A stretch of DNA of 64,000 nt from NCBI GenBank assembly GCA_951406725.2, contig OX597814.1:216690001-216754000 (forward strand), read 5' to 3'. Below, piece by piece: positions 8,152 to 32,479 of this stretch. The position numbers and the translations under genes are program-made. This stretch comes from Octopus vulgaris (lineage: Eukaryota). Position 1 is the first letter of the stretch. Each line of letters starts with the position of its first letter. The notes below the pieces were generated by a model. The model was not told where the DNA came from, ran no database searches, and was given only the letters and a program-made list of their open reading frames with translations.

Positions 8152-8188
<37 letters not shown>

Positions 8189-8457: not shown

Positions 8458-8460
<3 letters not shown>

Positions 8461-8493
<33 letters not shown>

Positions 8494-8790
8494 ACATCAA
8501 CGTTTAACGTCCGCTTTCCATGCTAGCATGTGTTGGACGGTTTTGACTGAGGGCTGGTGAACCAGATGGCTGCACTAGGCTCCAATCTTGATCTGGCAGA
8601 GTTTTTACAGCTGGATGCCCTTCCTAACGCCAACCACTCCGAGAGTGTAGTGGGTGCTTTTTACGTGTCACCGGCATGGGGGCCAGTCAGGCGGTACTGG
8701 TAATGACCTCACGCGAATCTTTTTACACATGCCACCGGCACAGGTGCCAGTGAAGCGACGTTGGTAACGATCACGCTCGAATGGTTTCCC
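8461..8790 (-). mobile_element. RTE-related retroposon 3' end with (CAT)n tail
   Basis: (CAT)n then CGTTTAACGTCCGCTTTCCATG...GGATGCCCTTCCTAACGCCAACCAC; related sequence in opposite orientation at ~32570-32710. Confidence 0.55.
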
Positions 8791-8864
8791 AATTATTTAT
8801 AAAAGCAATTGATCTCCAAATGATCTCAAAATATTTAATAAAAACGGTAACTATGCATCCAGGC

Positions 8865-9265
8865 CTCAAACCCATATCTCCAGAAAGACATTCAGCACCT
8901 GGAACGGGTTCAATACTTAGCCAACGGAATGATCGTGGGCCTGTCTAAGCTTACGGATGAGGAACGTCTCCAACGGCTGGCATTACCTTCACTCGAACAA
9001 CAGAGAATGTGGGAGAACTCATCCCAGCTTTCAACATCTTCAACGGGAATATAAACCTACCATTTGCGGAGTTTTTCACCCTTGCGCCGGATAGGGGTCT
9101 TCGTGGGCACGATTGGAAACTCTGTCCCCAACACTTTCGACCCAACAGGCAGAAGGCTACATTCTCCATCCGTATCGCAGCCCCGTGGAACAAGCTACCA
9201 TAAGATGTCATTCAACTGCCCATCACTCCCCTGTTCAAAGAGGCTCTGGACAATTGTGACGACTG
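8865..9265 (+). mobile_element. CR1/L2-group LINE 3' fragment
   Basis: KDIQHLERVQ...EERLQRLALPSLE...LRGHDWKL...FSIRIAAPWNKLP, the C-terminal signature of CR1-group ORF2. Confidence 0.8.
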
Positions 9266-9315
9266 TATAAAACAATAACTGCTTTTCTTTTTTAACATGG
9301 CTTAAGCATATTGTG

Positions 9316-9530
9316 CTCTTTTACTCTTTTACTTGTTTCAGTCATTTAACTGTGGCCATGCTGAAGCACCGCCTATACTAGAGCAAATCGACCCCAGGAG
9401 TTATTCTTTGTAAGCCTAGTACTTATTCTATGAGTATATATTGCCTAACCGCTAAGTTACGGGGACGTAAACACACCAGCATTGGTTGTCAAGCGATGTT
9501 GGGGGGACAAACACAGACACACTAACACAC

Positions 9531-9601
<71 letters not shown>

Positions 9602-9800
9602 TATATACATACACATATATATACGACGGGCTTCTTTCAGTTTCTATCTACCAAATCCACTCACAAGGCTTTGGTCGGACCAAGGCTATAGTAGAAGACA
9701 CCTGACCAAGGTGTCACGCAGTGGGACTGAACCCGGAACCATGTGGTTGGTAAGCAAGCTACTTATCACACAGTAACTCCTGCGCCTGCACACAGCCACT
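9316..9800 (-). mobile_element. SINE family A copy
   Basis: Reverse complement of the 51896-52306 type with an internal (CA)n(TA)n tract. Confidence 0.88.
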
Positions 9801-10522
9801 TCTGTGGAAATAAATTCTGGCAATAAATTTGGCACTCTGGCATCGTGCTAGAAATAACAGTCAAGTGCTCTGAATTTCACTTCTTCTCCAGGTGGTCTCA
9901 TACGACCCTAGAATTACAAACTAAATGCTAAAATATGCCTTGTTTTTCATATAAAATGGAAGGACATTCAAAATATACACAAAATTACTGTTCAAAAGGG
10001 ATCTCACATCATTTTTGTGACAACACCCAAGTGTTCGAAAATTGGTATTGATTTTTGTATAAAAATGAAGGACACTTTAAGAATGATCTGTAAAACACTT
10101 ATAAAGATGGCTTCACTTCATGCTAAAAATAACAGCAAAATTTGCATTCTTTTTCATAGAAAAGTGTAGCACGACTGTCAAAATAATCTCTAATGAATTC
10201 ATACCATGCTAGATATAATAGCCAGTTGCTCCGAAATGCGCATTGATTTACATACAAAGTTGAAGGACTCTTGAAGAAGGATAATTTTATATGAAAGCAA
10301 GGTATATTTTAGCATTTGGTTTGTATTTCTAGCGTCGTATGAGACCACCTGGAGAATTGAAATTCAGAGCACTTAACTGTTATTTCTAGCACCTTGACAG
10401 AGTGCCTGACAAACAATATTTTTGGAGACATTATTCTAAACTGTCCTTCACATATTATATGGTAAAAAACATGAATTTCAAAGTACGTCAAATCAAATTA
10501 AATTTATTGCTGAATTTATTGC

Positions 10523-10853
10523 CGCAGGAGTGGCTGTGTGGTAAGTAGCTTGCTTACCAACCAGATGGTTCCGGGTTCAGTCCCACTGCGAGTCTTCTAC
10601 TATAGCCTCCGGCTGGTCAAAGCCTGGTGAGTAGATTTGGTAGACGGAAACTGAAAGAAGCCCGTCGTATATATGTGTGTTTGTCCTCCCTACCGATGCT
10701 GGTGTGTTTACGTCCCCGTAACTTAGCGGTTCGGCAAAAGAGACCACTAGAATAAGTACTACCCATAGAAAGAATAAGTCCTGGGGTCGATTTGGTCAAC
10801 TAAAGGATGTGCTCCAGCATGGCTGCAGTCAAATGACTGAAACAAGTAAAAGA
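10523..10853 (+). mobile_element. SINE family A copy
   Basis: tRNA-like head GCAGGAGTGGCTGTGTGGTAAG...GGTTCAGTCCC and family tail. Confidence 0.88.
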
Positions 10854-10855
10854 AA

Positions 10856-10902
<47 letters not shown>

Positions 10903-11003
10903 CGCGCACGTGCCTCTATCTCGCCATGTTGGATCGTTGGAGTCTGCACATTTTTCACTCGCCGTTTTTTTCATTCTCTTTCCATTTTATTTTTTTTCAT
11001 AAT

Positions 11004-11277
11004 CCTTTTTGTTGAAGAGCGTAGGCTCAAAAGGTGAAAGACTTTCTCATCTTTCCCGACCGTTAACATAATACGCCTTCCTGGTCGTTCCTACACTTGT
11101 CTTCATCTTTTGTTTTTATGTACATTTGAACTCTATATATACATAGTTAGAATTTACAAAAAGGACAGACAAAACAAAAGACGAAGACGGGTGTGTAAAC
11201 AACAAACATGTATTAGTTTAACGCTCGGGGAGTGAGAAAATATTTTACCTTCGAGCCTACGCCCTTCGACAGAAAGG
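11004..11277. mobile_element. Two inverted Penelope-like terminal repeats with degenerate hammerhead motifs
   Basis: GAAGAGCGTAGGCTC on + near 11014 and its complement GAGCCTACGCCCTTCGACAG near 11253; a third copy on - at ~30893-31020. Confidence 0.55.
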
Positions 11278-11314
11278 AACAAAGAGAGTGGCTAGGTTTA
11301 GTGGCTAGCGATCA

Positions 11315-12015
11315 TACTGGACCATCCAATAAATAATGCAGTTTTTTTTATATACTTCTATTATTTTTCAAAGTTAAAATGAAGTTCTATTTTAATCTAA
11401 AATACACTCTCCTTCATTTTTTACATACACTTGCAAGAGCCCTCTTCCAGAATTCACTTGTCCGAGACGAAAAATACGTCTGTTGTACTGTTCTGATCTC
11501 GTCGACTGAATTCATATTTTTTCCTCCAAATCTTTTTGAAGACTGCGGAATAAATGATTACTAGACGGGACAATGCCTAGCAAATATGGTTGGTGGGGCA
11601 TCACTTCCTATTCAAACTGCTCCAGCCCTTGGAATGTCATCCTCGCAATATGTGGTTGAGCATTATCCTGATGGAAGAATACCTTTCGTCTTGCAACCAA
11701 AGATGGTCCTTTTTCTTCTAGGACAGGTGTCGATGAATGGTTGAATGACTAAATCCAAGCTTCTCTGTTAGTTCCTCAACAGTTACGATGGAATTTTGTT
11801 GCGTCACGCTTTGCAGGACGTCCTCGTCGAGGTCTGCAGATCTTGCAGGACACTGGCTTATGTTTATTGCCCGATCCCCATATACTGCATTAATATTCCT
11901 AGCACTTTCTTTTGCGTTGATGCCCTTATTGAACTCATAAAGCAAAATATTCTCCTTTGTCACTTCCATTATAGCTTTGAAAAAATAGCAGTTAAGATCG
12001 AACTGCACTCTTGGT
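11315..12015 (-). mobile_element. Internally deleted Tc1/mariner element
   Basis: Minus ORF MEVTKENILLYEFNKGINAKESARNINAVYG...TVEELTEKLGFSHSTIHRHL (mariner HTH); FHQDNAQPH downstream; TA-flanked end near 11316. Confidence 0.8.
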
Positions 12016-12641
12016 AAAACAAAATATACCTACACGCGTGTTTATATGTGTGTGCGCATGCGTAATAAGAAAGGGAGACATATAGAAAGTAAGGGAGGTG
12101 GGGTGATATTAATATATGAGGAGGTGAAAGAGAAAATATTTTCTAAGTATCTTTAATATTTATATAAAACTTTAAGATACTTGGCTGTTATTTCTAGTAT
12201 CGCGTAAGGATCACTAGTTGGGCAAGATTTCTTCGTAAAGTGTCCTTCAATCTTTCATGGAAACCAATGCAAAATATAGTGTGTTGAGCCGTTATTTCTA
12301 GCATGTTGCTAGACCACTTGTAGGAAAACACATTTTATAGACGCTTCGTGAAGTCTCCTATTTCAATATGAAAAACATTACAAATTTGAAAGTCTTTAAT
12401 AATGGAAGGCAAGGTGAAGTGTGCTGCTCTCATCTACCATCTGAAGCTCCGATAGTGTGGGCGCATTGCCTCTGAAGATGGACAGTGCTGCTGTGGAGGT
12501 GGCGCCAAAAGAGACAGGTCTGAATGAGTTTTCCGTTTATATAGTTTCCATCGCGAGCCTACAGTAATAAATAATGAGGTGGGAGGGGGAGAGAGAAAGC
12601 AAGAAAGGTGGAGCATACAGTAATATATAATGAGGTGAGAC

Positions 12642-12875
12642 AAGGCGGCGAGCTGGCAGAAACGTTAGCACGCCGGGCGAAATGCTTAGCAGTATTTCGT
12701 CTGCCGTTACATTCTGAGTTCAAATTCTGCCGAGCTCGACTTTGCCTTTCATCCTTTCGGGGTCGATAATTTAAGTACCAGTTTCGCACTAGAGTCGATT
12801 TAATTGACTTAATCCCTTTGTCTGTCCTTGTTTGTCCCCTCTGTGTTTAGCCCCTTGTGGGCAATATAGAAATAT
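12642..12875 (+). mobile_element. SINE family B copy
   Basis: GGCGGCGAGCTGGCAGAA...GAGTTCAAATT...GACTTTGCCTTTCATCCTTTCGGGGTCGATAA; same family at 15189-15656 and 34988-35206. Confidence 0.85.
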
Positions 12876-13526
12876 ATAATGAGGTGAGAGACCGGTGGGA
12901 GGGGAGAGAGAATGTAGGTGAATTTTTGCGTGAGTGTGTAAGTGTATGTGTAAGTGTGTATTTCTATGTATACGCTTATACATTGGTGTGCTTGCAAGTA
13001 TGTACGCACACTCCTGTTAAATGAAAGAATAACCTCCTGTCTTATTCTCTGGTAAAGCTTTTCGGGCTTTTCAAAGAAAATATATTCAACACAATCAACT
13101 ATTCATAGTGTGGGAAAGTTTGTTTCAAGTCGGGCGAACATAATACAATAAAAGAATGCGTCTAAATGTGCTGCAGACGGTGTCCACATGTTGTTGCATG
13201 TGCGCAGACGAAACTCCTTGGTTCGAAGCGAGAGAATATTGAATAAATAAAAGAATCAATTAGAATGAACTAGAAAGGCACCCGAAGAGCGCTGACCTCT
13301 GCCAAGCAGACCATTTCCACCCATATACACGAATGCCCCCAAATCGCCCAATTTCTCAAACAATCATCGGCAAAAATATAACCTCCTTGGCGGGGGTAAA
13401 AAATAAATTAATACAGCCATATTATTAAAAAAAAAACCCCTTTAAAAACAGGAATCATCTGAAGCAGTTATTATACATCAATGATAATAGCGAGCTAGTT
13501 TAACCATACAACTTGTTTTTTTAAAC

Positions 13527-13903
13527 TTTTTTTACTTGTTTGAGGCATTTGGCTGCGACCATGCTGGAGCACCGCCTTTAGTCAAGCAAATCAATGCCAG
13601 GACATATTCTTTGTAAGAATAGTACTTAATCTATCGGTCACATTTGCTGTTATGGGACCTAAACACACCAGCATCGGTTGTCAAGCGATGTTAGGGGGGA
13701 CAAACACGGACACACAAACACACATATATACACATATATACGACGGGCTTCTTTTAGTTTCCGTCTACCAAATCCACTCACAAGGCTTTGGTCGGCCTGA
13801 GGCTATGGTAGAAGACACTTGCCCAATGTGCCACGCAGTGGGACTGAAACCGGAACCATGTGGTTGGTAAGCAAGCTACTTACCACACAGCCACTCCAGC
13901 GCC
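13527..13903 (-). mobile_element. SINE family A copy
   Basis: Full reverse-complement match to family A. Confidence 0.85.
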
Positions 13904-13944
13904 TAAAAAGAAACAACAATTACCTAAAACTTGAGTGATACACA

Positions 13945-14370
13945 CACAGCCACCACCACCACCACCACAACTATCCAACCACTATCACCACCAGCCACCA
14001 CCACCACCACCACCACCACCACCATATCACATTCACCACCACAACTATCCTACTACAACCACCACCATCAGCAGCAGCATTGTCATGGCTTCCACTTCAA
14101 CCACATACACCGCCATCAACGTTATCATGACGGTTACCTTGACAGTCACTTTTACCACCACAACCTGTATAACCACTGCAATACCATCACCACCACCCGA
14201 CTCACACTGTCATGAACACCACTATTACCACCATCACATCAGCATCGCACAACATACTGCCCCTGTCGCCATTATAACCATCGATACTATTTTATCCTCC
14301 TCCCATCCTTATCTCGACCATCGTCATCATCAACACTGTCTCTGCTTTCACCACCAATCACCGTCAAAAC
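13945..14370. repeat. Degenerate (CAC/CAT)n trinucleotide tract
   Basis: Direct inspection. Confidence 0.85.
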
Positions 14371-15188
14371 TACGATCACCACAATCAGTTTCTTTACACA
14401 GTTGAAAATCCATTTTCCGATACTCATGGGACCGAGATTGTTGCAGATTTTTGGTTTTTCTAATTTCGGAGTGCTTTATTAAAAACAAAATTGCATCTAC
14501 AAAACGGAACAGTTTGAGGATAGAAACCAGGTCTAAACACAATAGATTATAGACATACTCTCAATGTAGTTCTATATAAATATTTAATAATTTTTTTTAT
14601 ACTTAAGACCGTCAGAAATGTTAAGATATCAGCCTCTACCCATGTTGTCACGCTTTGATTAAAAGGTTACAGCATAGATTAGATTACTTAGATAAGTTTC
14701 GGCCAAAGTTGACTCAGGCCATGTCTAATTTAATAGCCCTACCTGGAAAAGATACACAGTCAGCTCTGGGGAACCGTAGCCCATTCAAGCAGAGGGTTAT
14801 TGTTTACAGAGGCATATCTGGGTGTGGGTGGTTTATCTGGTATTTGTTGGGGGTAATCATCTCGGTATCGTTTGAATACCGCGAAGTCACTTTCCTCCTT
14901 TATGTGTATTTGACACGATGTTGAAGAGAGCAGGGCCAGTTGAGGTGAAATAATTCTGTCCTAGTGTTGTGATACGACACGAACATTTCTGTAGTGGGCG
15001 GATGGCACGGGGGCCAAGCCTCGGACGAATTTTTAAGATGGGCAATGTTGATGGAATATTTTCCACATCATACAGATGATATAGAGCTTACAGCGGCCGT
15101 GGAGGGAGCAAAACCTGAGCTTTTTGAGCCGATCCCAATAGTCAAGGCTTGTCATGTCATCCTCCGCAAACCTCCACTAAGCAGCTAA

Positions 15189-15656
15189 GAGTTCAAATTC
15201 CGCCGAGGTTGACTTTGCCTTTAATCCTTTCGGGGCCGATTAAATAAGTACCAGTTGCGCACTGTGGTCGATGTAATCGACTTAATCTGTTTCTCTGTAC
15301 TTGTTTGTCTCCTCTGTGTTTAGCCCCTTGTGGGTAGTAAAGAAATAGGTATTTCGTCTGCCGTTACGTTCTGAGTTCAAATTCCGCCGAGGTTGACTTT
15401 GCCTTTCATCCTTTCGGCGTCGATAAATTAAGTACCAGTTACGCACTGGGGTCGATATAATCGACTTAATCCGTTTGTCTATCTTTATTTGTCCTCTCTG
15501 TGTTTAGCCCCTTGTGGATAGTAAAGAGATAGTTATTTCGTCAACCCTTAAGTTCTGAGTTCAAATTCCGCCGAGGTCGACTTTGCCTTTCATCCTTTCT
15601 GTGTTGATAAATTAAATACCAGTTGCGTACTGGGGTCGATCTAATCGACTGGCCCC
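15189..15656 (+). mobile_element. Three tandem partial SINE family B units; the last is split by the LTR element and resumes at 19784-19829
   Basis: GAGTTCAAATTCCGCCGAGGT recurs at ~15189, 15373 and 15557; CGACTGGCCCC|CTCACCCAAAATTTCGGGCCTTGTGCC matches the uninterrupted copy at ~35148-35186. Confidence 0.88.
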
Positions 15657-15909
15657 TGTGGGATGACGTCAGCAGCTAGGGAGCTGACCGGAAGAGGAAG
15701 TGTGCAGGAGTGACGCGCGCGCAGGCAAGGGACAATCGGGGTAACCGACAGTGCTGGATGTGTGAGCGCTTCGACAAGGTAAGGAAAAAGCAGCTGCTAT
15801 TTTTAGAGTTCGGATCGGGCCACGTGGACGGGTGCGTTACCACCGGGGAGGTCTGCGTTGTCGAAGAGAAGGTTGGTGTCTTTACTTCAAATTCCCCGCT
15901 TACACCACA
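15657..15909 (+). repeat. 5' LTR (253 bp)
   Basis: Starts TGTGGGATGACGTCAGCAGCT and ends CCGCTTACACCACA; both termini shared with 19521-19778. Confidence 0.88.
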
Positions 15910-15944
15910 AGCTATTTCGGCACTCCACATAAGTCGTCACCACG

Positions 15945-18900
15945 ATGACAGCTAAAATCAGAATCGCCAGCGACGTTATCAGACCTTCTAATGGTGAGGG
16001 CGATGTAGTGGCCTGGATGCGTAAAATTAGGCTTGTGGCGAGACTGCAGGGCATTAGCGATGTAGTGAGCCTTATGGCACTCTGTTTGGAAGGGAGCGCG
16101 TTGACTCTATACCTCGAAATGGACGAAGAAGAACGTCTGAGCTAAGAGAAGATTGAGCAACGTCTGAGAGAGGCTTAAGCCGAGTGTGAATATACAGCCT
16201 TTGTTAAGCTGGGCACGATTAGATGGACGGGAGAGCAGTTGGATGAATACGCGGCGGAGGTGCGTAGGCTGACCACGCTGATTGTGTTTACAGGAGAAGG
16301 CCTGGAGAGAGCAGCGCGACTGGCGTTCGTAAGTGGGTTCTCTGACGACGTAGAGATTCGACTGCAGCAATTGCCCGGGAGCAAAAGATGGCGCTGAGCG
16401 AACTTGTGACTCACTCCCATGTGTTGACGCGAAACACTGGATGGAAGGCGATAACGATGGCGGTAACGAAGGTGCGTAAAGACGGACGATCGCCGGAGAA
16501 AGACGCGAAGAAGCCTACCGTGCAACGACAGCGGTCGTTCTGAGGCTGGTGTTTAAAATGTCAGGGGTCGCGCATGGTGAGGGAGTGTACACAACCGGAG
16601 CCCGTCTGCTATCGATGCAGGCAGACAGGACACATCGCCCGTGATTGCGACCAGCGAAACGACCGTGGGGAAGTTGCTGCCTCTTGTTCCCCCGCAAACG
16701 AGTAGAGGCGCTTTTAGAAACGCTGCTCTTAATTGATGTCGAGGTCGAGGGAAAGACGTTCAAGACCTTCGTAGATACGGGTTTCACGACCACCCTCGTG
16801 ACTTCAAGGGTGACGAAGAAATGGAATGGGACAAGTAGCGTCCGGGCGGTCGACGGCAGCGAAATCCGTTGCAAAGGCAGCAGCAAGGTAGAGATAGTGG
16901 TGCGATGCGCGACGCTAAGACTGCAGGTAATTGTGGTTGAACGCGGGATAGACGGGATTGATGTGGTGATGGGGATGGACGCTATCAACCGCCTCGGTGG
17001 CGTCAGTATTGTAGGAGATGAGATCACGTTCGGAAGTGTGGGGGTGTCGTGCGCTGTGAGTCAGGCTCGCCATAGAAAGCAGAGCCCCGCGAGGGACTGC
17101 GCCACTTACACCATCGAGGACAAGGATTTTCAGGCGGTATTCGATGGTCAGCGGTGGACGATAGAGTGGCGATGGAAAGACGAGCTCCCGATGCTGAAGA
17201 ACAGGGTGAGCTGCTACCAGCGTACCCTGAAAGGTCACGCCAGGGTCGAGTTCGAAGACGAGATAGAGAGGTGTATCGAGGAAGGAGTCCTTGCCCCGTG
17301 GGAGGAGGAGGTAGTGGGTGGAGTGCTACCTCTTAGATGGTGGTGCAGCCGACGAAGGGAAAAGTCAGACTAGTGCTGGACTTTAGAGAGCTAAACGCGC
17401 ATATATCGTGCCACACGGGAGGCGAGGCAACTGACGTTTGTGGCGAGACGTTATGTGTGTGGAGACAGTCGATCAAGGCAGCGACGATTGTCGACTGGAA
17501 ATCGGCATACTTGCAGCCCCATGTGAGCGACAAACTGTGGCGATATCAGCTGGTGCGGTACAAGGGCCGGACGTACTGTTTAACCAGGTTGGGTTTCGGA
17601 CTGAATTCCGCTCCGAAGATCATGGCGGCAGTGCTTAAGTCCGTCCTAGGGAAGGAGGACAAGATTAGAAAGGCCACCAGTTCCTACATAGACGACATTT
17701 TGGTGGACAAAACTGTAGTGCCAGTCAACGAGGTAGTGAGACTCTGGAGAAGTTCGGACTGATTGCGAAGCCACCGGAGTCGATGAAAGGGGGAGATGCA
17801 CTGGGGCTGAGGCTGCGAAGAGATAGATCGAGAGAGTTGGTGTCCCGGATAGGAAATGAAATCCCAGAGCTGAGTTCCAGCGTCAGCAGGAGAGCGCTGT
17901 TCTCGGTGTGTGGGAAGTTGGTCGGTGACTACCCGATCGCTGGATAGCTGCACACAGCATACAGTAACATCAAGAGATGAGCAGAGGGGGGAGTTGGGAT
18001 GACAAGGTGGGAGAAGGGACGGTGGCGATGATGCGGGAGATCCTAGAACGAGAAAACCCGTTCAGGGGGAACTGGTATGTGCCCAAGCCGGAATGCGGGA
18101 CCGTCTGGTGTGCTGCTAGCAGTATAGCGATAGGGGTTGTGTTGGAGATCGAAGACGTTGAGGTGGAGGTCGCGGCCTGGCTTCGGAAAGTAGACGACTT
18201 TAACCACACCAATGTCGCCGTATTAGACTCGGTGCTGAAGGGGGTGAACTTTGACCTGAAAAGGGGGCTGCACTTAATCAAAATCCGGATGGATTCGGCC
18301 ACTATGCTTGGCTGGGTAGGATCGGTGATCACCGGTGAGAGGAGAGTTCGGATGAAAAGTACCGCGGAGATGTTGGTGAAGCGACGTCTAGGAGTTCTAG
18401 GAGAATTGATTGCCGAATTCAAACTGAAGCTGAACGTGGTTTTCGTGCCTTCGGAGAAAAACAGGGCGGACGCACTGACCAGGGTGAAAATGGCGTGGTT
18501 GGAGGAGCCGGAGGAGGCACAGAAAGGGACAGCTGCGGCGTGTCGGTTGGGTGACTCCGAACTGAAGAGACTGCACGCTTTGCCTCACTTAGGTGTGGAC
18601 AGGATCCAATATCTTGCGAAGATGATTGAAGCTGACGTCACTAGGAGAAGCATCCGGAAAGTGGTCGGAAACCGCGACAAATGTCAGTCCATTGACCCTG
18701 CTTCGTGTGGGCATGAGCAAGGAAACCTTTCGGTGGAGCACAACTGGAAGTGACTTGCTGTAGTTGTGACGCATTAGCGACAGGGAATGTATCTCTCTGG
18801 TCGACTGCAGGCCGGGCTAGCTGGCCATTTGGAGGGAGTTGAGGACGGGCATTGCTGACGAGATTGCGCAGATTTTGAACGGGATATTTTTAGAGAGAGG

Positions 18901-19489
18901 GCCCGTGGAAGAACTGCTAATGGCCAACGGGGCGGCGTTTCGTTCGGAAGCATTGAGGGTTATGCTCGGACGGTGGAAAGTGCGTCGCTTGTTCAGAGCA
19001 GCGTATAGGCCGAACAGTAACGGAATCGTGGAGAGACACCATCGGACAGTCCAGATCATAGCGAAAAGAGGACACATTTCGCCGCTGGAAGCAGTTTTCT
19101 GGTACAACATGTCTCCCCGATCGAGAAAAGCTGAAAAATCTGTGCCAAACAGAGCGCTATTTAAATACGAATGGAGGCATCCGAGTAAAGCACCGGAGTG
19201 TCACGAAGAAGAGAAGGGACCCGCCTGCGTGAAAATAGGGGAGAAAGTCTGGGTTAAGCCTCCGAAGATGCGCTGTACATCTGAATGAAGCAGAGGAATG
19301 GTGACGGCGGTCAATTTCAGAAACAACGTCTCCGTGGATGGAATGCCGCGACATGTCTTGGACCTTCGCAGGATTGTCGCTTCGTCGGATGACGATTGTG
19401 GAGAGGAGGAGAACGAAGTGCCTTGCCCGAGAAGATCTCGACGCGCAAAGCGCCCTCCCGGTTGGATAGTGGACTTCGACGTGGAGTAG
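15945..19489 (+). pseudogene. gag-pol pseudogene of the LTR element
   Basis: Fragments 15945-16145 (gag), 16645-17373 (protease/RT start), 17337-17762 (RT, LGFGLNSAP, YIDD), 17977-18753 (RNase H, integrase Zn finger), 18839-19489 (integrase core and C-terminus). Expected catalytic Asp residues appear as Ala (WCAASS, LMANG). Confidence 0.9.
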
Positions 19490-19520
19490 AGAGAATGTGA
19501 TCCTTAAGATCAGAGTGGCG

Positions 19521-19778
19521 TGTGGGATGACGTCAGCAGCTGGGAAGCTGACCAGAACTTGGGAGCTGACCTGAAGAAGAAGGGCACAGGGGCCTTTTCG
19601 ATCGGGGTAGCCGACAGTGCTGGACTTGTGAGCACTTCGACAAAGTAAGGGAAAAGTATGTCTTGCTTTTCTGCTGGGATGAGAACTTGAGTTATTCCTT
19701 GCCAGTCACGTATCAACAGGAACTGATCCAGTCTTTTGCACTGGAGCCAATCACAGAGAACCTTCCGCATACACCACA
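19521..19778 (+). repeat. 3' LTR (258 bp)
   Basis: Starts TGTGGGATGACGTCAGCAGCT after a purine-rich AGAGTGGCG and ends CCGCATACACCACA followed by the TSD. Confidence 0.88.
19657..19764 (-). pseudogene. DARS2: Captured fragment of mitochondrial aspartyl-tRNA synthetase (anticodon-binding OB fold) inside the 3' LTR
   Basis: Minus strand reads KVLCDWLQCKRLDQFLLIRDWQGITQVLIPAEKQDI, which aligns to human DARS2 as recalled ([34 protein letters not shown]) with about 15/33 identities; recognition from memory, not a search. Confidence 0.8.
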
Positions 19779-21504
19779 GCCCCCTCACCCAAAATTTCGG
19801 GCCTTGTGCCTAGAATAGAAAAGAATATTGAAGATGACGTAAGCATTGAGATAAAGAATGATTGTTTGCGGGAATAGGAGATACGGGGAAAATATATTCA
19901 CACGGTGTGTGGGAATGCTGGATAACATCGGCATACATATACACTGCAACACACACACACACACACATCCTTTAATCAAACATATACACACAGCAATATA
20001 CACATCCACCAACAGAGACACTACAACAAAGACATTCAAACAAAGATATGCACAAATATGTCTAAGTAACACCCACACATATATAAACGTCCTTCTGCTA
20101 CATTATATATAAACCAACGACATTTGGGAGTCTCATAATTCTCTCTGCTGTTTCAACGAACAGAACTCGCAAGACGTTAAACGGACATCAGGCTGATATT
20201 GAAACCTAAATATTATTGTATTTACACATTTACATCGTTAAACATTCACTACAACAATTTCAAACATAAATATACTTTTCTATTGAACTTTATTTTAATT
20301 TCATACAGTATTTTACTGACAAGAAACTGCTAAAACCTCTGGTAACAAAACATTTCATTTATTTCGTTTTGGGATTTGGTTTGCAAGATTCTTTATGTGT
20401 TTTTCGTGTGTTGAAGCATATTCTGTTGTGTCTGGGGAGAGTCATTCTCTTTTGGGTGACTTATAATTTAACAAACTCACCTGTAAAATTTCCACTTATT
20501 TCTTTTTTATTTTTCCAAACTTTTCGTTCCGTCCAGCAACCTTTTCAATAGTTTTTACTCTCTCTTTCATTTACATTTCCAGAATATAATATAAAATCTA
20601 ATTTGTTTATAACTATATAAAATGATGGAAATTAGACGAAAGAAAATGTTCCTTTATTTCGTTTTTGGATTTGGTTTGCAAGATTCTTTATGTGAGTTTG
20701 TGTGTTAAAGCATATTCTGTTGCGCTTGGAGTGAGTCATCCTTTTTTAGTGCCTTATAATTTCACCGGTGAGTTTGTTAAATTATAAGGCACTAAAAGAG
20801 AATGACTCTCCCCAGATACCACATAATGGTCCTCTAATCATCCAGCATTTTAGTTAGTCTATGATGGATTCCCAATTCACAAATGAGATTTAGAATTTGT
20901 AAATCAGTTTTATAGCTTAAAAATTAATTGGTTGTTTTTTTCATAAATTTCATTTCCGTAATGTTTGTCAGTTGAGAAAGCCCCTGCCTATAACCCTTGT
21001 TTTTTTTTTACCTGGGTCTTCGAGAGTGGCGAGTGGGAGGAAGACAGTCCCAAAACACGAGACCCAACACGAATATATAAACAGAAAAAATTCTATGCTA
21101 AAAGGAATCCAGGATCATGTGATCCTGTTAAAATAGGTGATAGCTTAATCGACTTATCTCGTCCCCTGAAATTACCGGCCTTGTGCCAAAATTTGAAACA
21201 AATATTTAATCTTGAATTTAAATGTAATAGTTCTGGTAATTAAAGAAGGATTGTGTGAATATAAAATGGTTTCGTGACAGCATATAGCTTTTAATCACCA
21301 TATACACATACATACACACGCATATATGTTTATCCCATGTTAACATGTTAATCTTTTAATGTGGAATGCATTAAATATGTTTTCTCTTCTTGAATATTAT
21401 TTATCAGATGGATGGCTTCTGGCAATTATTTCAAAATGTCTGGAATTATTATAAACTTTAATTATAACTAACAACGGAGACTATAAACTGCTACATGAAC
21501 TAAA

Positions 21505-21811
21505 CATTTATTTGTTCCTTCTCGAGCAATGCCTGACTCATAAGGGCCAGTTTCCCGGTTTCCTTGGCGTAGAGGTTCCCCACCTGGACTGGATTCCGGT
21601 CCGTCGCAGGTGAGCTTCAAGATGCAGGAGGAAAAAGTGAGAGAAAGTTGTGGCGAAAGAGTCAGCAGAAGTTGGCCATTACCTTCTGCCGGAGCCGCGT
21701 GGAGCTTAGGTGTTTCGCTCATAAACACACACACATCACCCGGTCTGAGATTCGAACCCACGATCCCTCGACCGCGAGTTCGCTGCTCTAACCACTATGC
21801 TATGCGCCTCC
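21505..21811 (-). mobile_element. tRNA-derived SINE family C copy
   Basis: Reverse head GGAGGCGCATAGCATAGTGGTTAGAGC...GGTTCGAATC; related to 25454-25760 and 31745-32000. Confidence 0.8.
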
Positions 21812-22103
21812 TTGAACTAAACATGTTAGGCAATGAGTGTTTGCGGGAGAGTCATGGCTGGAGTTGCTAGATAAGAATTAAGTTAAACCCTGACAGTAGG
21901 AAACGTAAATTTTATATATTTTGAACACATGTAATTGCCATATTTCAAATATATTTCATGCTTACAAAAACTATTTTAATGCTTAAATATTTCAACTTAA
22001 TAAGGTGGTGAGGTGGGAGTAACAACTGGACTTGTGTCAAATTTGAACCAGTTTTGCAACTTTATTTAAATATTTGAACCAGTTTTGCAACTTTATTTAA
22101 ATA

Positions 22104-22354
22104 TTGGGTTGGTGCATAATTATTGCGGCGTTTTTTCAACAAATTTTATTCTACAAAAACAATAGAAGTATTTATCAAAAACATCTTTAAATGACGGTCT
22201 GACCGTCTGCCAAGCAAATGAGAAGCAGTAATTGAAGTAGATGGTGAATATGCTCCGGAATAATCATTTAAAGATGTTTTTGTTAAATATCGCTATTGTT
22301 TTTGTTGAATAAAATTTGTTGAAAAAACGCCGCAATAATTATGCACCAACCCAA
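22104..22354. mobile_element. Mariner-derived MITE-like palindrome
   Basis: TA-flanked ~90-bp inverted repeats starting TTGGGTTGGTGCATAATTATTGCGGCG; centre reads DRLPSK*EAVIEVDGEY, like a mariner transposase C-terminus. Confidence 0.8.
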
Positions 22355-22598
22355 TATTTATAAAGTTGAAAAACTGGTTCAAATTTGACACAAGTCCAGC
22401 TGTTACTCCCACCTCCCTACCTTATTAAGTTGAAATATTAAAACATTAAAATAGTTTTTATAAGCAGGAAATATAATTGAAATATATAATAGATAAACTT
22501 AGATATGTTTCGACCAAAGATTGGTCCAGGCCATGTCTAACCTTATAGCACCACCTGGTAAATATATGCTTATAGATTGCATTTGTTATATATTATAT

Positions 22599-22799
22599 CA
22601 GTGGTTTTCAACCAGGGTTCCGCCAGTACAGTCCAGGGGTTCCGCAAGAAGTTACAAAACTGCTAAAATCAGCAGTAATTTTTAATTCTCCTGTGCAGAT
22701 ATGTGTGCATAAGACAATTAAATTATTACACAGGGGTTCCTCGAGCCAGTGGAATGTTTCCTTGGGGTTCCGCTCCAGCAAAAATGTTGAAAAGCACTG
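22599..22799. mobile_element. hAT-type MITE (201 bp)
   Basis: TIRs CAGTGGTTTTCAAC / GTTGAAAAGCACTG and a perfect 8-bp TSD TATTATAT (22591-22598, 22800-22807). Confidence 0.88.
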
Positions 22800-23127
22800 T
22801 ATTATATATTCGAAAAATAAAATGAATAGAAATAGATTTTCTCGTTAGGAAAAGTGACTGATAGGAGATCCTCGCTGTATCAGGACAATTAGCCTCTAGG
22901 ACAATTACTCCACTTGGTTATTTACCCCTTCTCCAATATATTAAGAAGTTTTAAATAATCATCTGATGTCCTCAGGAGTGATTGTCCTAGCAAGGGGGAG
23001 GTGGTGGTTATTGTCCAGGGGGGTGAGTAAATATCCTAGACTCATTATTTGCTTAAGAGCGATCATCAGACTGATGTTTTAGAGTTTATTATTCATTGTT
23101 TAATTAGGGGGTATTTAATTACCAACT

Positions 23128-23287
23128 AGGAGTGGCTGTGTGGTAAGTAGTTTACTTACGAACCACATGGGTCCGGGTTCATTCCCACTGCGTGGCACCT
23201 CGAGCAAGTGTCTTCTACTATAGCCTCGGGCCGACCAAAGCCTTGTGAGTGGATTTGGTAGACGGAAACTGAAAGAGGCCCGTCGTA

Positions 23288-23338
<51 letters not shown>

Positions 23339-23558
23339 GTGTGTGTTTGTGTATGCTTGTGTGTCTGTGTTTGTCCCCTCCAACATCACTTGGCAATCGA
23401 TGCTGGTGTGTTTACGTCCCCGTAACTTAGCGGTTCGGTAAAAGATTTCGACAGAATAAGTACTAGGCTTACAAAGAATAAGTCCTGGGGTCGATATGCT
23501 CGACTAAAGGTGGTGCTCCATCATGGCCACAGTCAAATGACTGAAACAAGTAAAAGAG
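23128..23558 (+). mobile_element. SINE family A copy
   Basis: Head, internal (TA)n and tail all present. Confidence 0.88.
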
Positions 23559-23776
23559 TACACGCACACATACAAACACTGACACACACCCACATACACA
23601 CACTCACACACACACACACATATATACCCATACATAAACAGGTATATAAAGAAACGTCTACATACCCGAAAACATGGACCTTACACATACATACACGCAG
23701 AGAAACACTCATACACATACATAAACAGGTATATAAAGAAACGTCTACATACCCGAAAACATGGACCTTACACATA

Positions 23777-24600
23777 CGAGGGGCGTTCAATAAGTAATGC
23801 CCCTGACCCACTTCCCATAGCAGTAGAGCAACGACATTTGGCACAGTTATTAGTCTTTTCCTACATAGGAACTACCCAGAGTTATGCATTTCTCCCATCG
23901 TTTGATACAGCTCTGGAGACCGTTTTTGTAGAAGACCCCAGCTTGGTCCTCCAACCACGACCTGACTTCAGAAATCAAGGCTGCATCATCTGGGAAACGC
24001 TTTCCTTTCAAAATCAACTTCATGGCTGTGAAGAGGTGAAAATCAGAGGGTGCAAGGGGAGGAGTTCATAGCTGCACGCCTGTGCTTCTGATCTGGCGAC
24101 ACGCGAGTTGTGGACCGGAGCGTTGTCCTGCAGGAGGAGGATGCCTTTGCTGATCTTGCCCCGCCTCTTGATTTTGATAGCTTCTCTTAATTTCCTCAAA
24201 AGTGAAGCATAATAGGCTCCTGTAATTGTGGTACCCTTTGCCAGGAAATCTGTCATCACTACTCCGTCCTGGTCCCAGAAGACTGTGAGCATAACCTTGT
24301 CAGCGGAGGGCTGCACCCTTGCCTTCTTTGGAGGGGGTGAGTCACGGTGCCTCGAGCACTCAACGCGTTCTTGCTTCTGGAAAGGTGTGAGCAACCTGGA
24401 AATCCATATGGCAGACACCTTTTGCATATGCAAATGGTCATGAATGATAGTTTCCACAGACCCGGTACTAATCTTGACCTTATGGGCTATTTGGCGAATA
24501 GTTATGCGTTGACCTTCCAAAATGGCAGCCTCAACTTGACGGCAGAAGGGGGCGACCAGATCTGGGAGCTGATTCCACAGAGTTCCGACTATGTTTGAAT
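23777..24600 (-). mobile_element. Truncated mariner transposon
   Basis: TA + TIR CGAGGGGCGTTCAATAAGTAATGCCC; minus ORF with [30 protein letters not shown]; segment carrying the first catalytic Asp is deleted. Confidence 0.9.
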
Positions 24601-24643
24601 TCACAATGCCAGGAATATATGGAGGAATATATATATAGGTATA

Positions 24644-24718
<75 letters not shown>

Positions 24719-24972
24719 ATATATGTATGTATATATACGTATATATATACGTATATAAATATATGGATATATATATATTTGCATATAGTTATACGTATAT
24801 ATATACGTATATATATGTATATCTATATCTATATATATATATATATATATATATATCACCATGATCGACCAGGCTAACAGATGTTGCTACACATCGCTGG
24901 TCACAATGCGCTTCATATTGTTTTAGCCCCCAACAGACGCCACTCCGCTGGCTAAGTGAGCAGGCCAATATG

Positions 24973-25090
<118 letters not shown>

Positions 25091-25129
25091 TAGATATAGA
25101 TATATATATACGTATATATATATATATTG

Positions 25130-25297
25130 ATTTGATTTTGATTTTCCAGTTTCAGCTAATGAGCTGCGGCCATGCTGGGGCACCGCCATTTGGTTTGCTA
25201 CACGGTTTTACCTCACGGATGCTTTTTAGCAAACGCCATCTGATGCAGTAGAGAGTTCGATGCAGCTGCCCTCATCTGCGCCTCCTGCCGTGAAGTT

Positions 25298-25300
<3 letters not shown>
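25130..25300 (-). mobile_element. 3' end of the same CR1-group LINE as 27397-28736
   Basis: [20 protein letters not shown] and the 3' UTR match 28560-28736. Confidence 0.85.
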
Positions 25301-25375
<75 letters not shown>

Positions 25376-25381
25376 CGCATA

Positions 25382-25416
<35 letters not shown>

Positions 25417-25453
25417 GTGTATGTGTGTGTGTGTGCGTGTGTGTGTGTGTGTG

Positions 25454-25760
25454 TGGATGTGCAATAGCCCAGTGGTTAGGGCAACGGACTCGCGGTCGTC
25501 GGATCGCAGTTTCGATTCCCAGACCGGGCGTTGTGAGTGTTTCTTGAGCGAAAACACCTAAAAGCTCCACGACGCTCCGGCAGGGGGTGGTGTCGATCCC
25601 TGCTGTACTTTTTCGCCACAACTTTCTCTCACTCTTTCTTCTGTTGGCCTGCTCACTTAGCCAGCGGGGTGGTGTCATTTGAAGGCTAAAACAATGCGAA
25701 GCGCATTGTGACCAGCGATGTATAGCAACATCTGATAGCCTAGTGAGTCATGGTGATCAC
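25454..25760 (+). mobile_element. tRNA-derived SINE family C copy
   Basis: A/B-box-like head TAGCCCAGTGGTTAGGGC...GTTTCGATTCC; tail also seen reversed at 24857-24968. Confidence 0.8.
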
Positions 25761-25791
25761 GGTGATATATATATGTATGTATATTGTATAT

Positions 25792-25834
<43 letters not shown>

Positions 25835-25865
25835 ATGTATATTGTATATTGTATATTGTATATTG

Positions 25866-25932
<67 letters not shown>

Positions 25933-26414
25933 GTTTATATATATGTACGAATAAAACGCCCCCCCCCCCCAGTCCACTGGACGGTGCTGAATCACATCTG
26001 CTGAATAAAAAGCAATCAGTGTTTTCTTTTTATTCAGATATAATTAATCATGCTTTTATTTCAATAAATTTTTTAGTTTTGTTCAACAAAGTTAAGGCAA
26101 AAAAAATTTCTTTACAAACCAAATAGTCTTTCCTTCCTTCATGCCAAGTTTGAAGAAAATATCTCTTTTCGGTCTCTTAAATATACTGCATTTTGTGGCA
26201 TTATTTCAAGCCAGCCGTGCACGTGCATTTTTCTCGCGTATGCGTAGTATCGATCGCAACAGCTGATGTACTTGCGCGTACAAATGCACGTTCCCACGGT
26301 TTTATCGATCGCATTCTCACCTGGAATCGATTTTTGTAATTTTTTCAAGACTTATACACACCCTGATACCGCCGAATTTGAGCGCAATCGGATGGAGGCT
26401 GCCCGAGTTCCTAG

Positions 26415-26462
<48 letters not shown>

Positions 26463-26552
26463 CACACACACACAGAACGGATTTTATATAACAGATACAT
26501 GTATAAGTTTGTATACATATATGCCTGTATGTATGTATATGATATACATGTT

Positions 26553-26589
<37 letters not shown>

Positions 26590-26628
26590 ATGATATATGT
26601 TTATATGTGTGTATATTATATATATGTT

Positions 26629-26661
<33 letters not shown>

Positions 26662-26742
26662 TAATATATATATATACATATATATATATATGTATATTTA
26701 TATATGTATATATGTGTATTTATATATGCATATGTATATTTA

Positions 26743-26836
<94 letters not shown>

Positions 26837-26838
<2 letters not shown>

Positions 26839-27140
26839 GGCTGCCTCTCCTTATCGAGTATGCCCATTGCACGAAGCTTAATTGTTACTGGTGCTGTGAT
26901 CGAATGTGACATTTTAGCCTGTCTTGTACAGAATTGGCAACTAAAACCTTTACTGGTAATAGCCGGCTGTCGTTGTAACTGGGCCTCATGTACCTTTTCA
27001 TGTCGTTTAGGTCCTCCTGCCGAATTACACTCTCTTCCACATGCCCGGCAGATATGATTAGTATGGTGTGTTACACCACCACCAGTGGCCAGGTTGTCAC
27101 TCATCTGTCTCGCTCTATGACTACGAAGATGACTCTTTAG
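26837..27140 (-). mobile_element. RTE-type LINE 3' fragment with C2H2 remnant
   Basis: [23 protein letters not shown]; tail TTAAGCTTCGTGCAATGGGCATACTCGATAA shared with 47037-47574. Confidence 0.7.
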
Positions 27141-27184
27141 TACATATATATACATATATATGTATATATAACTATGTATTTATA

Positions 27185-27251
<67 letters not shown>

Positions 27252-27313
27252 GTATATATATATATCTATACATATATATATATGTTTGTATATATATATA
27301 TGTATATATATGT

Positions 27314-27373
<60 letters not shown>

Positions 27374-27396
27374 ATATATATACAGGGAGAAGCTGT

Positions 27397-28736
27397 TTAA
27401 CTCAGCTCCTACAACACTATGACTGGGTGCTGAAACGGCTGCTCAACCACTCAAATGTGGAAGTGATATATCTCGACTTTGCAAAGGCCTTTGATAAAGT
27501 CGATCATGGAATGATATGTCACAAACTGCGTGATCTCAACATAGTTGGAAAACTGGGAGAATGGCTTCATGACTTTCTGAAGGATAGAAGTCAGGTGGTA
27601 GTAGCCAATGGGGCCACCTCCATTAACACACAAATAGTGAGCGGTGTTCCGCAGGGCACTGTTCTGGGACCACTACTGTTCATAATGGCCCTCTCAGACA
27701 TGCCCTCAGCCACGCAGAGAGCCACGATCACAAGTTATGCAGATGATACAAAAGTCTCACAGGCAATACAGAACCCTGAGGACACTAAACACCTGCAATG
27801 TGAGCTGGACGAAATATACAAGTGGGCTGAAAAGAATAGCATGCAGTTCAATGCTGGAAAGTTTCAAGCTTTATACTATCAGCATGCAAAACTGAATGCA
27901 ATACCCAATGAATACACTGGACCCGGAGGGATTGCAATCCCAGAGGCACAATCAGTGCGTGACCTTGGTATTCACATGAGTGATGACGCGACCTTTCATG
28001 TACATGTTGCTAAACTGACAATGAAATGTAGACGGCTGGCTGGATGGATTCTTAGAACCTTTAGAACAAGAGAACAAGAAACCATGATGGTCCTCTGGGA
28101 AGACACTTGTCCTAAGCCACTTTGACTATTGCTCTCAGCTATGGTCACCATCCAGTGTCAAGTTGATCACAGAACTTGAGGCGATCCAACGAAGCTACAC
28201 AAAGAAGATAGCCTCTATGCAGAATGTAAGCTACTGGGAAAGACTCAAGAGATTAAAATTATATTCCCTGGAGCGTAGGCGGGAAAGATATGCCATAATA
28301 TACATCTGGAAGATCCTGAAGGGAAGTGTCCTGAACTTTGGCATCGAGAGTTACGCAAATGCCAGAACTGGGCGCCACTGCGTGGTGCCTAGGACTCCAA
28401 ACCTGCCATCAAGATGTAGGACAAGATTCTGTGATAGCCTGGGCTTCCGAGGCCCACAGCTCTTCAATATCCTCCCGAAGAACCTGAGAGACCTGCATGG
28501 GGTGGATACAAATGTCTTTAAAATGAAGCTGGATCTCTTCCTGTCAGGTGTCCCAGATGAACCAACTTCACGGCAGGAGGGGCAGATGAGGGCAGCTGCA
28601 TCGAACTCTCTCATGCACCAAATAGCAGTTGCTAGAAAGCCTCCATGAAGTGAAACCAAGTAGCAACACCAAATGGCGGTGCCCCAGCATGGCCACAGCT
28701 CATAAGCTGAAACTAGAATCAATCAATCAATCAATC
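27397..28736 (+). mobile_element. 5'-truncated CR1/L2-group LINE (RT and C-terminus), relatively young
   Basis: YLDFAKAFDKVDH, SGVPQGTVLGPLLF, YADDTK; one frameshift near 28098; ends in an (AATC)n tail. Confidence 0.93.
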
Positions 28737-28782
<46 letters not shown>

Positions 28783-29083
28783 GACTGTTTATTTCTATTT
28801 TCTACAAGTGGTGAATTACAGGGATATGTCGTATGTGGAGTCCCACTTGTAGAAAATATAAATAAACAGTCTTGACTGCTATTTCTAATTTCTCGGTATG
28901 CGGCCAAGCAACCTGTTGCCTGCCCCATTTATTTATATACAATATATATACTAAACTTTACAGAAGTTCCTACCGTTAATCGGTTATATTTACATACCGA
29001 ATTCTACCAGTAAGTAACCATTATAGGAATTATTTACTCTTATTATTATATATATATATGTATATATATATGCATATGTATAA

Positions 29084-29168
<85 letters not shown>

Positions 29169-29202
29169 CCTGTGTGTGTGTGTATGTATATATATGTATA
29201 TA

Positions 29203-29259
<57 letters not shown>

Positions 29260-29280
29260 GTGTGTGTATATATATGTGTG

Positions 29281-29337
<57 letters not shown>

Positions 29338-29372
29338 ATATGTACATATGTATATATATATATATACATACA

Positions 29373-29407
<35 letters not shown>

Positions 29408-30327
29408 GATTAATATATATATATAAATAATGTAAGTTCTTTGTATGCATATATATAGCATGTATATATTATTATACAAAATATGTGTATTTAGAATATA
29501 TATACTAGCAAGTCACCCGGCCTTCGCTCCAGTATGCACTGTACACAAATCTATTCAAAAGGCATCTTTCGTAATGCTTATCTATAAAATCTCAGCTAAA
29601 GGCTACTAGTCGCCACTCTTCACAAGAAAACGTCCTAAATTCCAAACTGACTTGCAGTTGGTCAGATATTTCCTGTTCTCTGGAACATTCATTTCTATCT
29701 GCGTTACTTTGAAGTTGTTCTGTTAACGTATATTCAGTTAAGCTGGTTTTTCTATTGGTTTCAGACTCCAACCTTTGTCATTTCTCCTATGGTGTTTCGT
29801 GTCACACCTGGTGGACTTGTCTACTCGTTTGAAACTGGCCTTTTTACTTCTCGTTGCTGTTGTATCTCCACGGCATTTCTTTGTCCCTTACACTGGTGCC
29901 TGTCTTTCTTCTTGTGTTTCCATAACCCTTCGACTTTCGGAGCGTTGGGCTTCGGATGACAGAAAAATTTTATGTTATCTTCTACGATTCATACTGTTTG
30001 TCCTGAAGTAAAATATTTAAAACATCAAAAATAAATCCCGTAACATGCAATTCATTTTTGTCGTTTTTAAATTCAATGACGTCTCTTTATTTCATTCGTT
30101 TACCAAACTTCATAAAAATCGGTCCAGTAAATTTTCCTCTATCTTTATATATACATATGTATGTTTATGTGTGTGTATGTATGTGTGCATGCATAGGAAA
30201 TAGATTAATTTAGTATAGACTAATAATAAAGGAATGAAACTGAACCAGTGCGTGTGTTAATAATGTTGGCATATGATCCTCCCAAGACAGAAAAACAATT
30301 CATATATGTATATATTTTTATATTTTG

Positions 30328-30555
30328 TCACCAGCATGGCTGAGCGATAAGAAGCTTGCTTCCCAACCATATGGTTCCGGGTTCGATCCCGTCAAGCCAT
30401 GGCATTTGACTCCCATAACTTGGTGGTTCGCTTAAAGATAGTGATGAAATAAGTATTAGGCTGAATAAACGCCCCGGGGTCGGTTTGTTCAACCAAAACC
30501 CTTGAAGGCGGTGCTCCAGCATGGCTGCTGTCTAATGCCCGAAACAAGTAAAACA
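30328..30555 (+). mobile_element. Deleted SINE family A copy
   Basis: Head and tail motifs present, middle missing. Confidence 0.7.
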
Positions 30556-30851
30556 ATAAAAAATATATTTGTTGTGCAAGAAGTTTTATGTGAAGTCGTG
30601 TTTTGAAACAGATATTGTTGTATTTCGGAATGGTCATTTCGCCTGTTTAGCCAATAAAAACACACGCACAATATATTTGGTGTTACTTTGCTTCAGTGTT
30701 ATTAATTTTTTACATTAATCTTAATCTTATTTCGGCCAGAGTTCTTTCGTCGCACTCCTGTGACCGCATCAGTGGTCATTTGCTTTCTTCTTTCTTATTT
30801 GTGTGTCTCCTTACTAACCGTCAGCCATATATATTAAAATATATATTAAAA

Positions 30852-30894
<43 letters not shown>

Positions 30895-31545: not shown

Positions 31546-31582
<37 letters not shown>

Positions 31583-32361: not shown

Positions 32362-32479
<118 letters not shown>

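Follow-up and report, generated by a model that had tools for sequence, protein, structure and literature searches.

LTR elements are known to capture host mRNA, usually as a replacement of their internal sequence. Retroviral papers reportedly describe plus-strand capture, and the study of Dunn, Olsen and Swanstrom in 1992 is said, going by its title, to concern LTR-associated cell-derived inserts in unintegrated retroviral DNA. Double template switches onto mRNA, guided by microhomology, are documented for LTR elements in the portions of PMC5131818 available to us, where internal ORF sequence is replaced in all of the 15 Drosophila cases and some of the captured pieces went through further rounds of retroposition. 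The repair of retroviral DNA with patches acquired by such switching is treated in the available part of a review (PMC4997597).

In this study, we analysed a stretch of 64,000 nucleotides of Octopus vulgaris DNA, hereafter the window, and found a Gypsy element whose 3' LTR carries a short antisense piece of spliced mRNA of the host gene for mitochondrial aspartyl-tRNA synthetase (AspRS), DARS2. This piece, the patch, is present in only one of the two LTRs of the element and spares the LTR terminus.

The Gypsy element and its primer site

The element spans 15657-19778 of the window, with LTRs in direct orientation, TG...CA ends and a 5-bp target duplication. Its parts are as follows.

15652..15656, plus strand: left target-site duplication GCCCC, in a short dispersed host repeat that resumes beyond the element
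15657..15909, plus strand: 5' LTR, 253 nt, TG...CA, family-type throughout
15793..15892, plus strand: the family's normal 100-nt 3' part of the 5' LTR, presumably U5 or R-U5, whose counterpart is replaced in the 3' LTR
15910..15921, plus strand: primer-site position, 12 nt, exact complement of nt 1-12 (the 5' end) of host tRNA-Phe(GAA), directly next to the LTR
15922..19503, plus strand: broken gag, protease, reverse transcriptase, RNase H and integrase, in Gypsy order
19504..19520, plus strand: polypurine-tract position, conserved and purine-rich, not a pure purine run
19521..19778, plus strand: 3' LTR, 258 nt, TG...CA, with the host patch
19779..19783, plus strand: right target-site duplication GCCCC, equal to the left one

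The gene order, gag followed by protease, reverse transcriptase, RNase H and integrase, is that of Ty3/Gypsy elements. Pfam matches of the ORFs in the window are weak (protease, E=3e-6; reverse transcriptase, E=8e-4; integrase, E=0.24). Natural relatives encode a zinc knuckle, reverse transcriptase, RNase H and integrase in that order, and the window element aligns to all three relative ORFs. Against these natural ORFs it has 16 stops and several frame breaks, with every gene affected, and its copies on contig C31, which are described below, have lost gag as well. Neither LTR contains a TATA box or an AATAAA/ATTAAA signal. The polypurine-tract stretch joined to the LTR start has 146 matches genome-wide, and 18 of the 45 LTRs examined are solo LTRs with 5-bp duplications. 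Rearranged copies of the family were also seen: the LTR copies of one locus (L036, G000:C4:152013330-152016476) form an inverted fold-back pair with an internal rearrangement, another (L186) has an inverted LTR within its internal region, and two (L193, C2:66087827; L264, C27:25572531) have internally deleted 3' LTRs in which only the last 7-10 nt of the terminus are left.

The primer site does not pair with a tRNA's 3' CCA end, as that of a Ty3/Gypsy element would be expected to, and it contains no TGG. The 12-nt motif is kept in divergent subfamilies whose following bases differ entirely, and it is also present in copies that were found by LTR similarity alone (primer-site loci L153-L182 and L283-L288; tRNA loci L149-L152). 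The counts for this motif in the 3' LTR census are biased by the search pattern. Conservation of the motif in the sequences compared suggests that the family may be primed by a short 5' tRNA fragment. Priming on internal, non-3'-end parts of tRNAs is known for other elements (PMC10886601, in the part available). A description of 5'-end tRNA primer use was not found in the literature covered, which included part of PMC7472051 and had most subscription journals and Repbase outside its scope. The apparent tRNA-Phe 5'-end primer site may be more surprising than the patch. Tandem arrays related to these sequences were observed at two loci, with about 45 tRNA-Phe 5'-end matches at a 200-bp period in one (G000:C18:30147732-30157146) and 7 units of the LTR-end and primer-site junction at a 170-bp period in the other (G000:C29:18419067-18420112); a tandem array at C1:57299253-57315571 has a larger unit at about 8.1 kb in 3 units.

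The DARS2-derived patch in the 3' LTR

The minus strand at 19657-19764 is open, and it translates as reported in a first-pass annotation of the window, which had assigned the product to AspRS/DARS2. That assignment is borne out by a search of 177,635 PDB sequences, in which human mitochondrial AspRS (4ah6_A, E=2.8e-5) was the sole match at E<=10; the 36-aa translated piece has no match in Pfam. All six candidates (6/6) in the octopus genome match the patch, and they are the patch itself, three loci on C31, one on C29 and an exon of host DARS2 on C22. The exon on C22, which matches human DARS2 with E=2.3e-12, aligns to the patch over 97 nt at 93% (90/97 identical), and a bacterial-type AspRS profile matches six places along C22:50.11-50.165 Mb.

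The C22 match is the final 97 nt of a 173-nt exon and ends precisely at the GT donor. After this exon end, the next 8 nt of the window copy are the first 8 nt of the following DARS2 exon, which sits behind an AG acceptor, whereas the start of the intron is mismatched; therefore, the template was spliced mRNA. The junction 8-mer has a single occurrence on the plus strand of the 70 kb examined around DARS2. Since the patch crosses an exon junction, lacks an intron of 2,120 nt and is neither confined to a single exon nor extended into intronic flank, the origin from spliced mRNA proposed in the first-pass annotation holds. The annotation also expected an exon junction within the piece, and one is indeed crossed, but at a different site, close to the end of the piece, where ...AEK is followed by QD. 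R76, at which the human exon 2/3 junction reportedly falls, lies within one exon in octopus and is not the junction crossed. Two residues noted as odd, D and C, are each one substitution away from the host G and Y. The extent of 19657-19764 needs correction: the host-derived stretch is 19654-19762, and the first codon (K) is mostly LTR sequence. The patch and its borders are composed of the following parts.

19654..19658, no strand: microhomology, 5 nt, common to the LTR and the complement of DARS2 mRNA
19654..19665, minus strand: beginning of the downstream DARS2 exon, from host C22:50113724 on, counting the microhomology
19666..19762, minus strand: final 97 nt of the upstream DARS2 exon, host C22:50111507-50111603, to the splice donor, 90/97 identical
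19763..19778, plus strand: retained LTR terminus, 16 nt, the presumed integrase attachment end

The downstream DARS2 exon has one match in the genome (1/1), and therefore no processed pseudogene that could have been the donor was found. With the six matches of the patch (6/6) also accounted for, a processed DARS2 pseudogene was rejected as donor. We also rejected a native DARS2 exon lying beside a truncated LTR, because the gene is on C22 with its introns and with further exons to model position 582 of 586, and because the LTR resumes after the patch. Elsewhere in the genome, a 506-aa intronless frame (G000:C4:113358380-113359900; L037:979-2499, minus strand) matches the aspartyl-tRNA synthetase model weakly; it reads like a mitochondrial asparaginyl-tRNA synthetase and is possibly a retrogene.

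Alignment of the LTRs, together with the host exon match, confirmed that the piece is located inside the LTR itself and is antisense to the element. It had been described as having no counterpart in the 5' LTR. The host piece is indeed found only in the 3' LTR; it is not an addition, however, but a replacement, for the corresponding 100 nt of the 5' LTR are those normal for the family. Thus, 103 host nt stand in the 3' LTR instead of 100 nt of normal LTR sequence, and the stretch between the junctions is 99-100 nt in 10 natural family LTRs. The 5' LTR is normal in the window copy and in the three C31 copies, and that of the C29 copy was not found. A variable cassette site, with another capture in the 5' LTR, was ruled out, because the sequence of the 5' LTR at this position is typical of the family. 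Where the patch begins on the left, 5 nt are exactly common to the LTR and the DARS2 mRNA complement (chance about 0.006; 8/11 in a looser reading), and at the right junction, where the copy exits, there is 1 nt of microhomology. No poly(A) and no duplication were found around the patch.

Two further observations were made on its borders. Within 2-3 nt of each junction there is one C-to-T change (19657 and 19764), the first of them inside the 5-nt microhomology, and both are the same in all five copies, which error-prone strand transfer could explain. The patch, 19659-19762 (103 nt), and the sequence it replaced, corresponding to 15793-15892 (100 nt), are nearly equal in length, and neither of the two mechanisms considered below, template switching and break repair, predicts this.

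Copies, age and origin of the patch

Copies of the patch were found at five loci (the window, three on C31 and one on C29), all with the same flanks on both sides, because they were carried by segmental duplications of a region that contains an ankyrin-RING gene.

34733..63291, plus strand: ankyrin-RING-death-domain gene (MIB1/MIB2-like), of a family expanded in Octopus
7771..59431, no strand: minimum span shared patchily with the duplicated regions on C31 (three) and C29, the vehicle that multiplied the patch

On C31, similarity to the window is about 83-93%, beginning at 7771 and ending at 30565-37868; on C29 it is patchy and reaches 59431. More than 20 kb of flank is held in common. Identity among the C31 regions is 99%, and they are therefore recent, or partly assembly duplicates. 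Since the chimeric locus is represented by contigs from runs with three different organism labels (B, C and D), it cannot be put down to an error in a single assembly.

The nearest named homologues of the ankyrin-RING-death gene are Octopus proteins, up to 99% identical. A splice acceptor stands at the start of what is inferred to be its first coding exon, and therefore an upstream non-coding exon is likely. When paralogue loci (C29 12.847-12.863 Mb; C31 near 5.487 and 3.946 Mb) were compared using queries with some exon flank, the ankyrin exon regions were 71-77% identical, the RING exon 87% and nearby non-coding DNA 86-93%, hinting that the family may be diversifying fast or may consist of mosaic units. 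On the other side of the element, about 1-7773 of the window is a repeat of roughly 8 kb with long internal microsatellites and an inverted copy at C31:5512237-5517998; three of its ORFs were tested and had no Pfam match, and it is probably a DNA transposon.

How often LTRs of this family carry host sequence was examined in several ways. Sixty LTR loci were found via LTR similarity, half of them with the normal LTR as query, and they represent 45 distinct LTRs, 40 normal and 5 patched, the latter being one insertion. A 3' LTR census, designed to be blind to the patched region, covered 100 of the 146 loci and gave 95 family-type LTRs, 4 that were broken off or internally deleted, and this patch. 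In 66 stretches (109,504 nt), no other host piece was found by a test that does not detect a patch beside the terminus; the 2 uncovered runs were both LTR-derived. The left-anchor pattern had 3 matches, all of them this patch (2 copies with a variant anchor were missed), and of the 42 matches of the right-anchor pattern the 30 examined were this patch (1) and unrelated sequence (29). A subfamily of patched LTRs was ruled out, since every patched copy has the same flanks. The count of other LTR copies suggested in the first-pass annotation thus yielded four further copies, all of the same insertion, and no patched LTR at any other insertion site. The capture is a single event.

Between the 5' and the 3' LTR, 13-15% of the shared sites differ and there are several indels; the duplicates differ at 7-10% and their flanks at 4-6%. 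The age of the insertion is therefore at most about double that of the duplications. The patch copies have 7, 7, 8, 8 and 10 differences from the host in 105 nt, 5 of which are common to all copies, and 1-7 differences among themselves. These figures, based on few substitutions and on a CpG-rich LTR, would fit a capture near the time of insertion. Copy-specific changes comprise 8 replacement and 2 silent changes, close to the unconstrained site ratio of 80:22, and therefore the patch drifts neutrally. The differences to the host that all copies share are 4 silent and 1 replacement. The silent excess (binomial P=0.009 for 4/5) might suggest that the mRNA came from a foreign donor; silent change in the host gene since the capture, however, suffices to account for it (Poisson P=0.14, 4 vs about 2 expected).

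During replication of an LTR element, a template switch that occurs while the minus strand is being made leaves the insert in sense orientation, and any alteration of the LTR at that stage is transmitted to both LTRs. Synthesis of the plus strand reaches the 3' LTR last, on minus-strand DNA, and a switch there gives an antisense insert in one LTR only. Antisense orientation and restriction to a single LTR are both seen here, which supports a late plus-strand switch. We lean slightly towards the view that the reverse transcriptase switched onto a co-packaged DARS2 mRNA in late plus-strand synthesis and returned before the LTR end. The DARS2 mRNA would have been present in the particle, and the growing plus strand would have paired with it at the 5-nt microhomology. 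Integration would have been open only to a product that came back to the LTR end, and the mismatched bubble would then have been fixed by replication or repair. The plus-strand switch fits the spliced source, the antisense orientation, the replacement in one LTR, the microhomology at entry and the intact terminus and target duplication. The lack of another DARS2 copy usable as a DNA donor (patch, 6/6; next exon, 1/1) and the age pattern, with capture at about the time of insertion, also count for it. Against it are the microhomology of only 1 nt at exit and the failure to find a second antisense capture (1/100 3' LTRs; 0 in 66 stretches, 109,504 nt).

The same patch may instead have been acquired after integration, which fits nearly as well and which we consider possible but less probable: a double-strand break in the 3' LTR would have been repaired in the germ line with a short DARS2 cDNA, by class 2 templated sequence insertion or RT-product-mediated repair, with a deletion of 100 nt, and the location in an LTR would be incidental. 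The absence of poly(A) and of a duplication around the patch, the deletion and the microhomology are class 2 features, restriction to a single LTR is expected of such a repair, and the 103 nt lie within the 73-414 nt reported in the available part of PMC5110952. Capture of spliced mRNA at breaks in mouse zygotes is likewise described in the part available of PMC4516963. Break repair, however, makes the antisense orientation a coin toss and leaves it to chance that the last 16 nt of the LTR were spared, and the divergence from the host (7-10/105) is weakly nearer to the insertion age than to the duplication age. A single event cannot separate the plus-strand switch from later patch repair with cDNA; the orientation favours the switch about 2 to 1.

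The two LTRs have diverged from each other about as far as unrelated members of the family (several indels, 13-15% substitutions), and so the patch might also have arisen in an earlier element and have arrived here ready-made within an LTR, through intermolecular strand transfer or gene conversion; alternatively, the 5' LTR might have been converted back to the family type. We regard this as improbable, because no patched LTR is present at any other insertion site, the matching target duplication indicates one insertion, and the closest relatives of the 5' LTR are only its own duplicates (94%), the next being at 88%.

Function and comparison with known systems

The first-pass annotation raised the idea that the patch acts in trans, as an antisense RNA or a source of small RNAs that tunes DARS2. 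By analogy with Pxyfem, for which the accessible part of a preprint (bioRxiv 10.1101/2022.04.04.486979) provides a precedent, such a role can be envisaged: the patch is still 90-93% identical to the mRNA at 5 loci, the chimeric locus is represented among contigs of runs with three different organism labels, and the patch is on the same strand as the downstream gene, which likely has an upstream non-coding exon, so that read-through is possible. Contigs from two runs that we guess to be RNA overlap the patch. In run X13, a 725-nt contig of the C31 type covers 19524-19940, with neither strand nor level given by the contigs and without a silent control. In run X15, an 85-nt contig covers 19733-19817, again without strand, level or silent control, and a 2,532-nt contig with host alleles aligns at 19654-19762, with 12 letters past the exon junction, fewer than the 31 letters of the bridging rule. 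We nevertheless think a silencing role very unlikely. The copy-specific changes look neutral, and the copies do not track the host, as the same 5 sites differ from the present host in all 5. Multiplication was passive and included more than 20 kb of flank, neither LTR has a TATA box or AATAAA/ATTAAA, the element is dead, and silencing of an essential gene would have no evident benefit. The presence of the patch in one LTR only, the absence of spread by retrotransposition, the broken element and the neutral changes do not support a regulatory role, and the patch is most likely an inert fossil. A bolder proposal can be made, which we would give little credence: plus-strand switching may be a second route of LTR-mediated retroposition that leaves antisense patches in single LTRs, and here the patched LTR, multiplied with the ankyrin-RING-death family and transcribed, might feed small RNAs against DARS2 mRNA as a ready-made trans-silencer.

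Pxyfem of Plutella xylostella is, like the octopus patch, a multi-copy, spliced partial retrocopy joined to LTR-element sequence. It differs in being W-linked and tandem and in giving ping-pong small RNAs against its parent PxyMasc, whereas the octopus copies look neutral (bioRxiv 10.1101/2022.04.04.486979, available part). The Cassandra, Helenus and Ajax TRIMs also have sequence derived from host RNA within the LTR. Their sequences are 5S rRNA- or tRNA-like, are family-wide and have been proposed to be Pol III promoters, according to the part of PMC10886601 available, whereas the octopus sequence is from an mRNA and is present in one LTR of one insertion (40/45 LTRs are normal and the other 5 are that insertion).

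Class 2 templated insertions and RT-product-mediated repair resemble the patch in that they are short and reverse-transcribed, with deletion and microhomology and without poly(A) or duplication (PMC5110952 and PMC4516963, each in part). The patch shows the class 2 combination of no target duplication of its own, no poly(A), and a junction deletion with microhomology. In the portions of these papers available, the insertions have no tie to LTRs and no orientation rule; the octopus patch lies just inside an LTR end, in the orientation that plus-strand copying gives. In retroviral patch repair, short host RNA is likewise copied into element DNA after a template switch at chance microhomology. The examples in the available part of the review (PMC4997597) are laboratory retroviral products, whereas the octopus patch is in an integrated, inherited Gypsy copy.

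In the literature covered, with most subscription journals outside its scope, no inherited antisense mRNA patch in a single LTR was found; the supplements of PMC5131818 may contain antisense or LTR-located cases. The LTR-mediated retrocopies of Tan et al. 2016 (PMC5131818, in part) are similar in several respects: a partial intronless mRNA piece replaces element sequence with microhomology at the junctions, there is no poly(A) or L1-type duplication, and the element ends are kept for integration. The octopus patch is such a partial intronless copy, with 97 nt of one exon followed by the beginning of another, and it took the place of element sequence (100 nt lost, 103 nt gained), with microsimilarity of 5 nt and 1 nt at its two junctions. 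It does not lie in the internal region between two complete LTRs but inside the 3' LTR, and no secondary insertion of it was found (5/5 copies with common flanks).

In conclusion, a spliced antisense patch that is confined to the 3' LTR and spares the terminus is the expected trace of a reverse transcriptase slipping onto RNA in late plus-strand synthesis. If this reading is true, the patch preserves, as a fossil passed on by inheritance, a step that can hardly be observed by other means, and it provides a signature that can be searched for in genomes: antisense, in one LTR, with the ends spared. In contrast to the Drosophila cases in the available portions of PMC5131818, the octopus patch is within one LTR, is antisense to its element and was never retrotransposed again.
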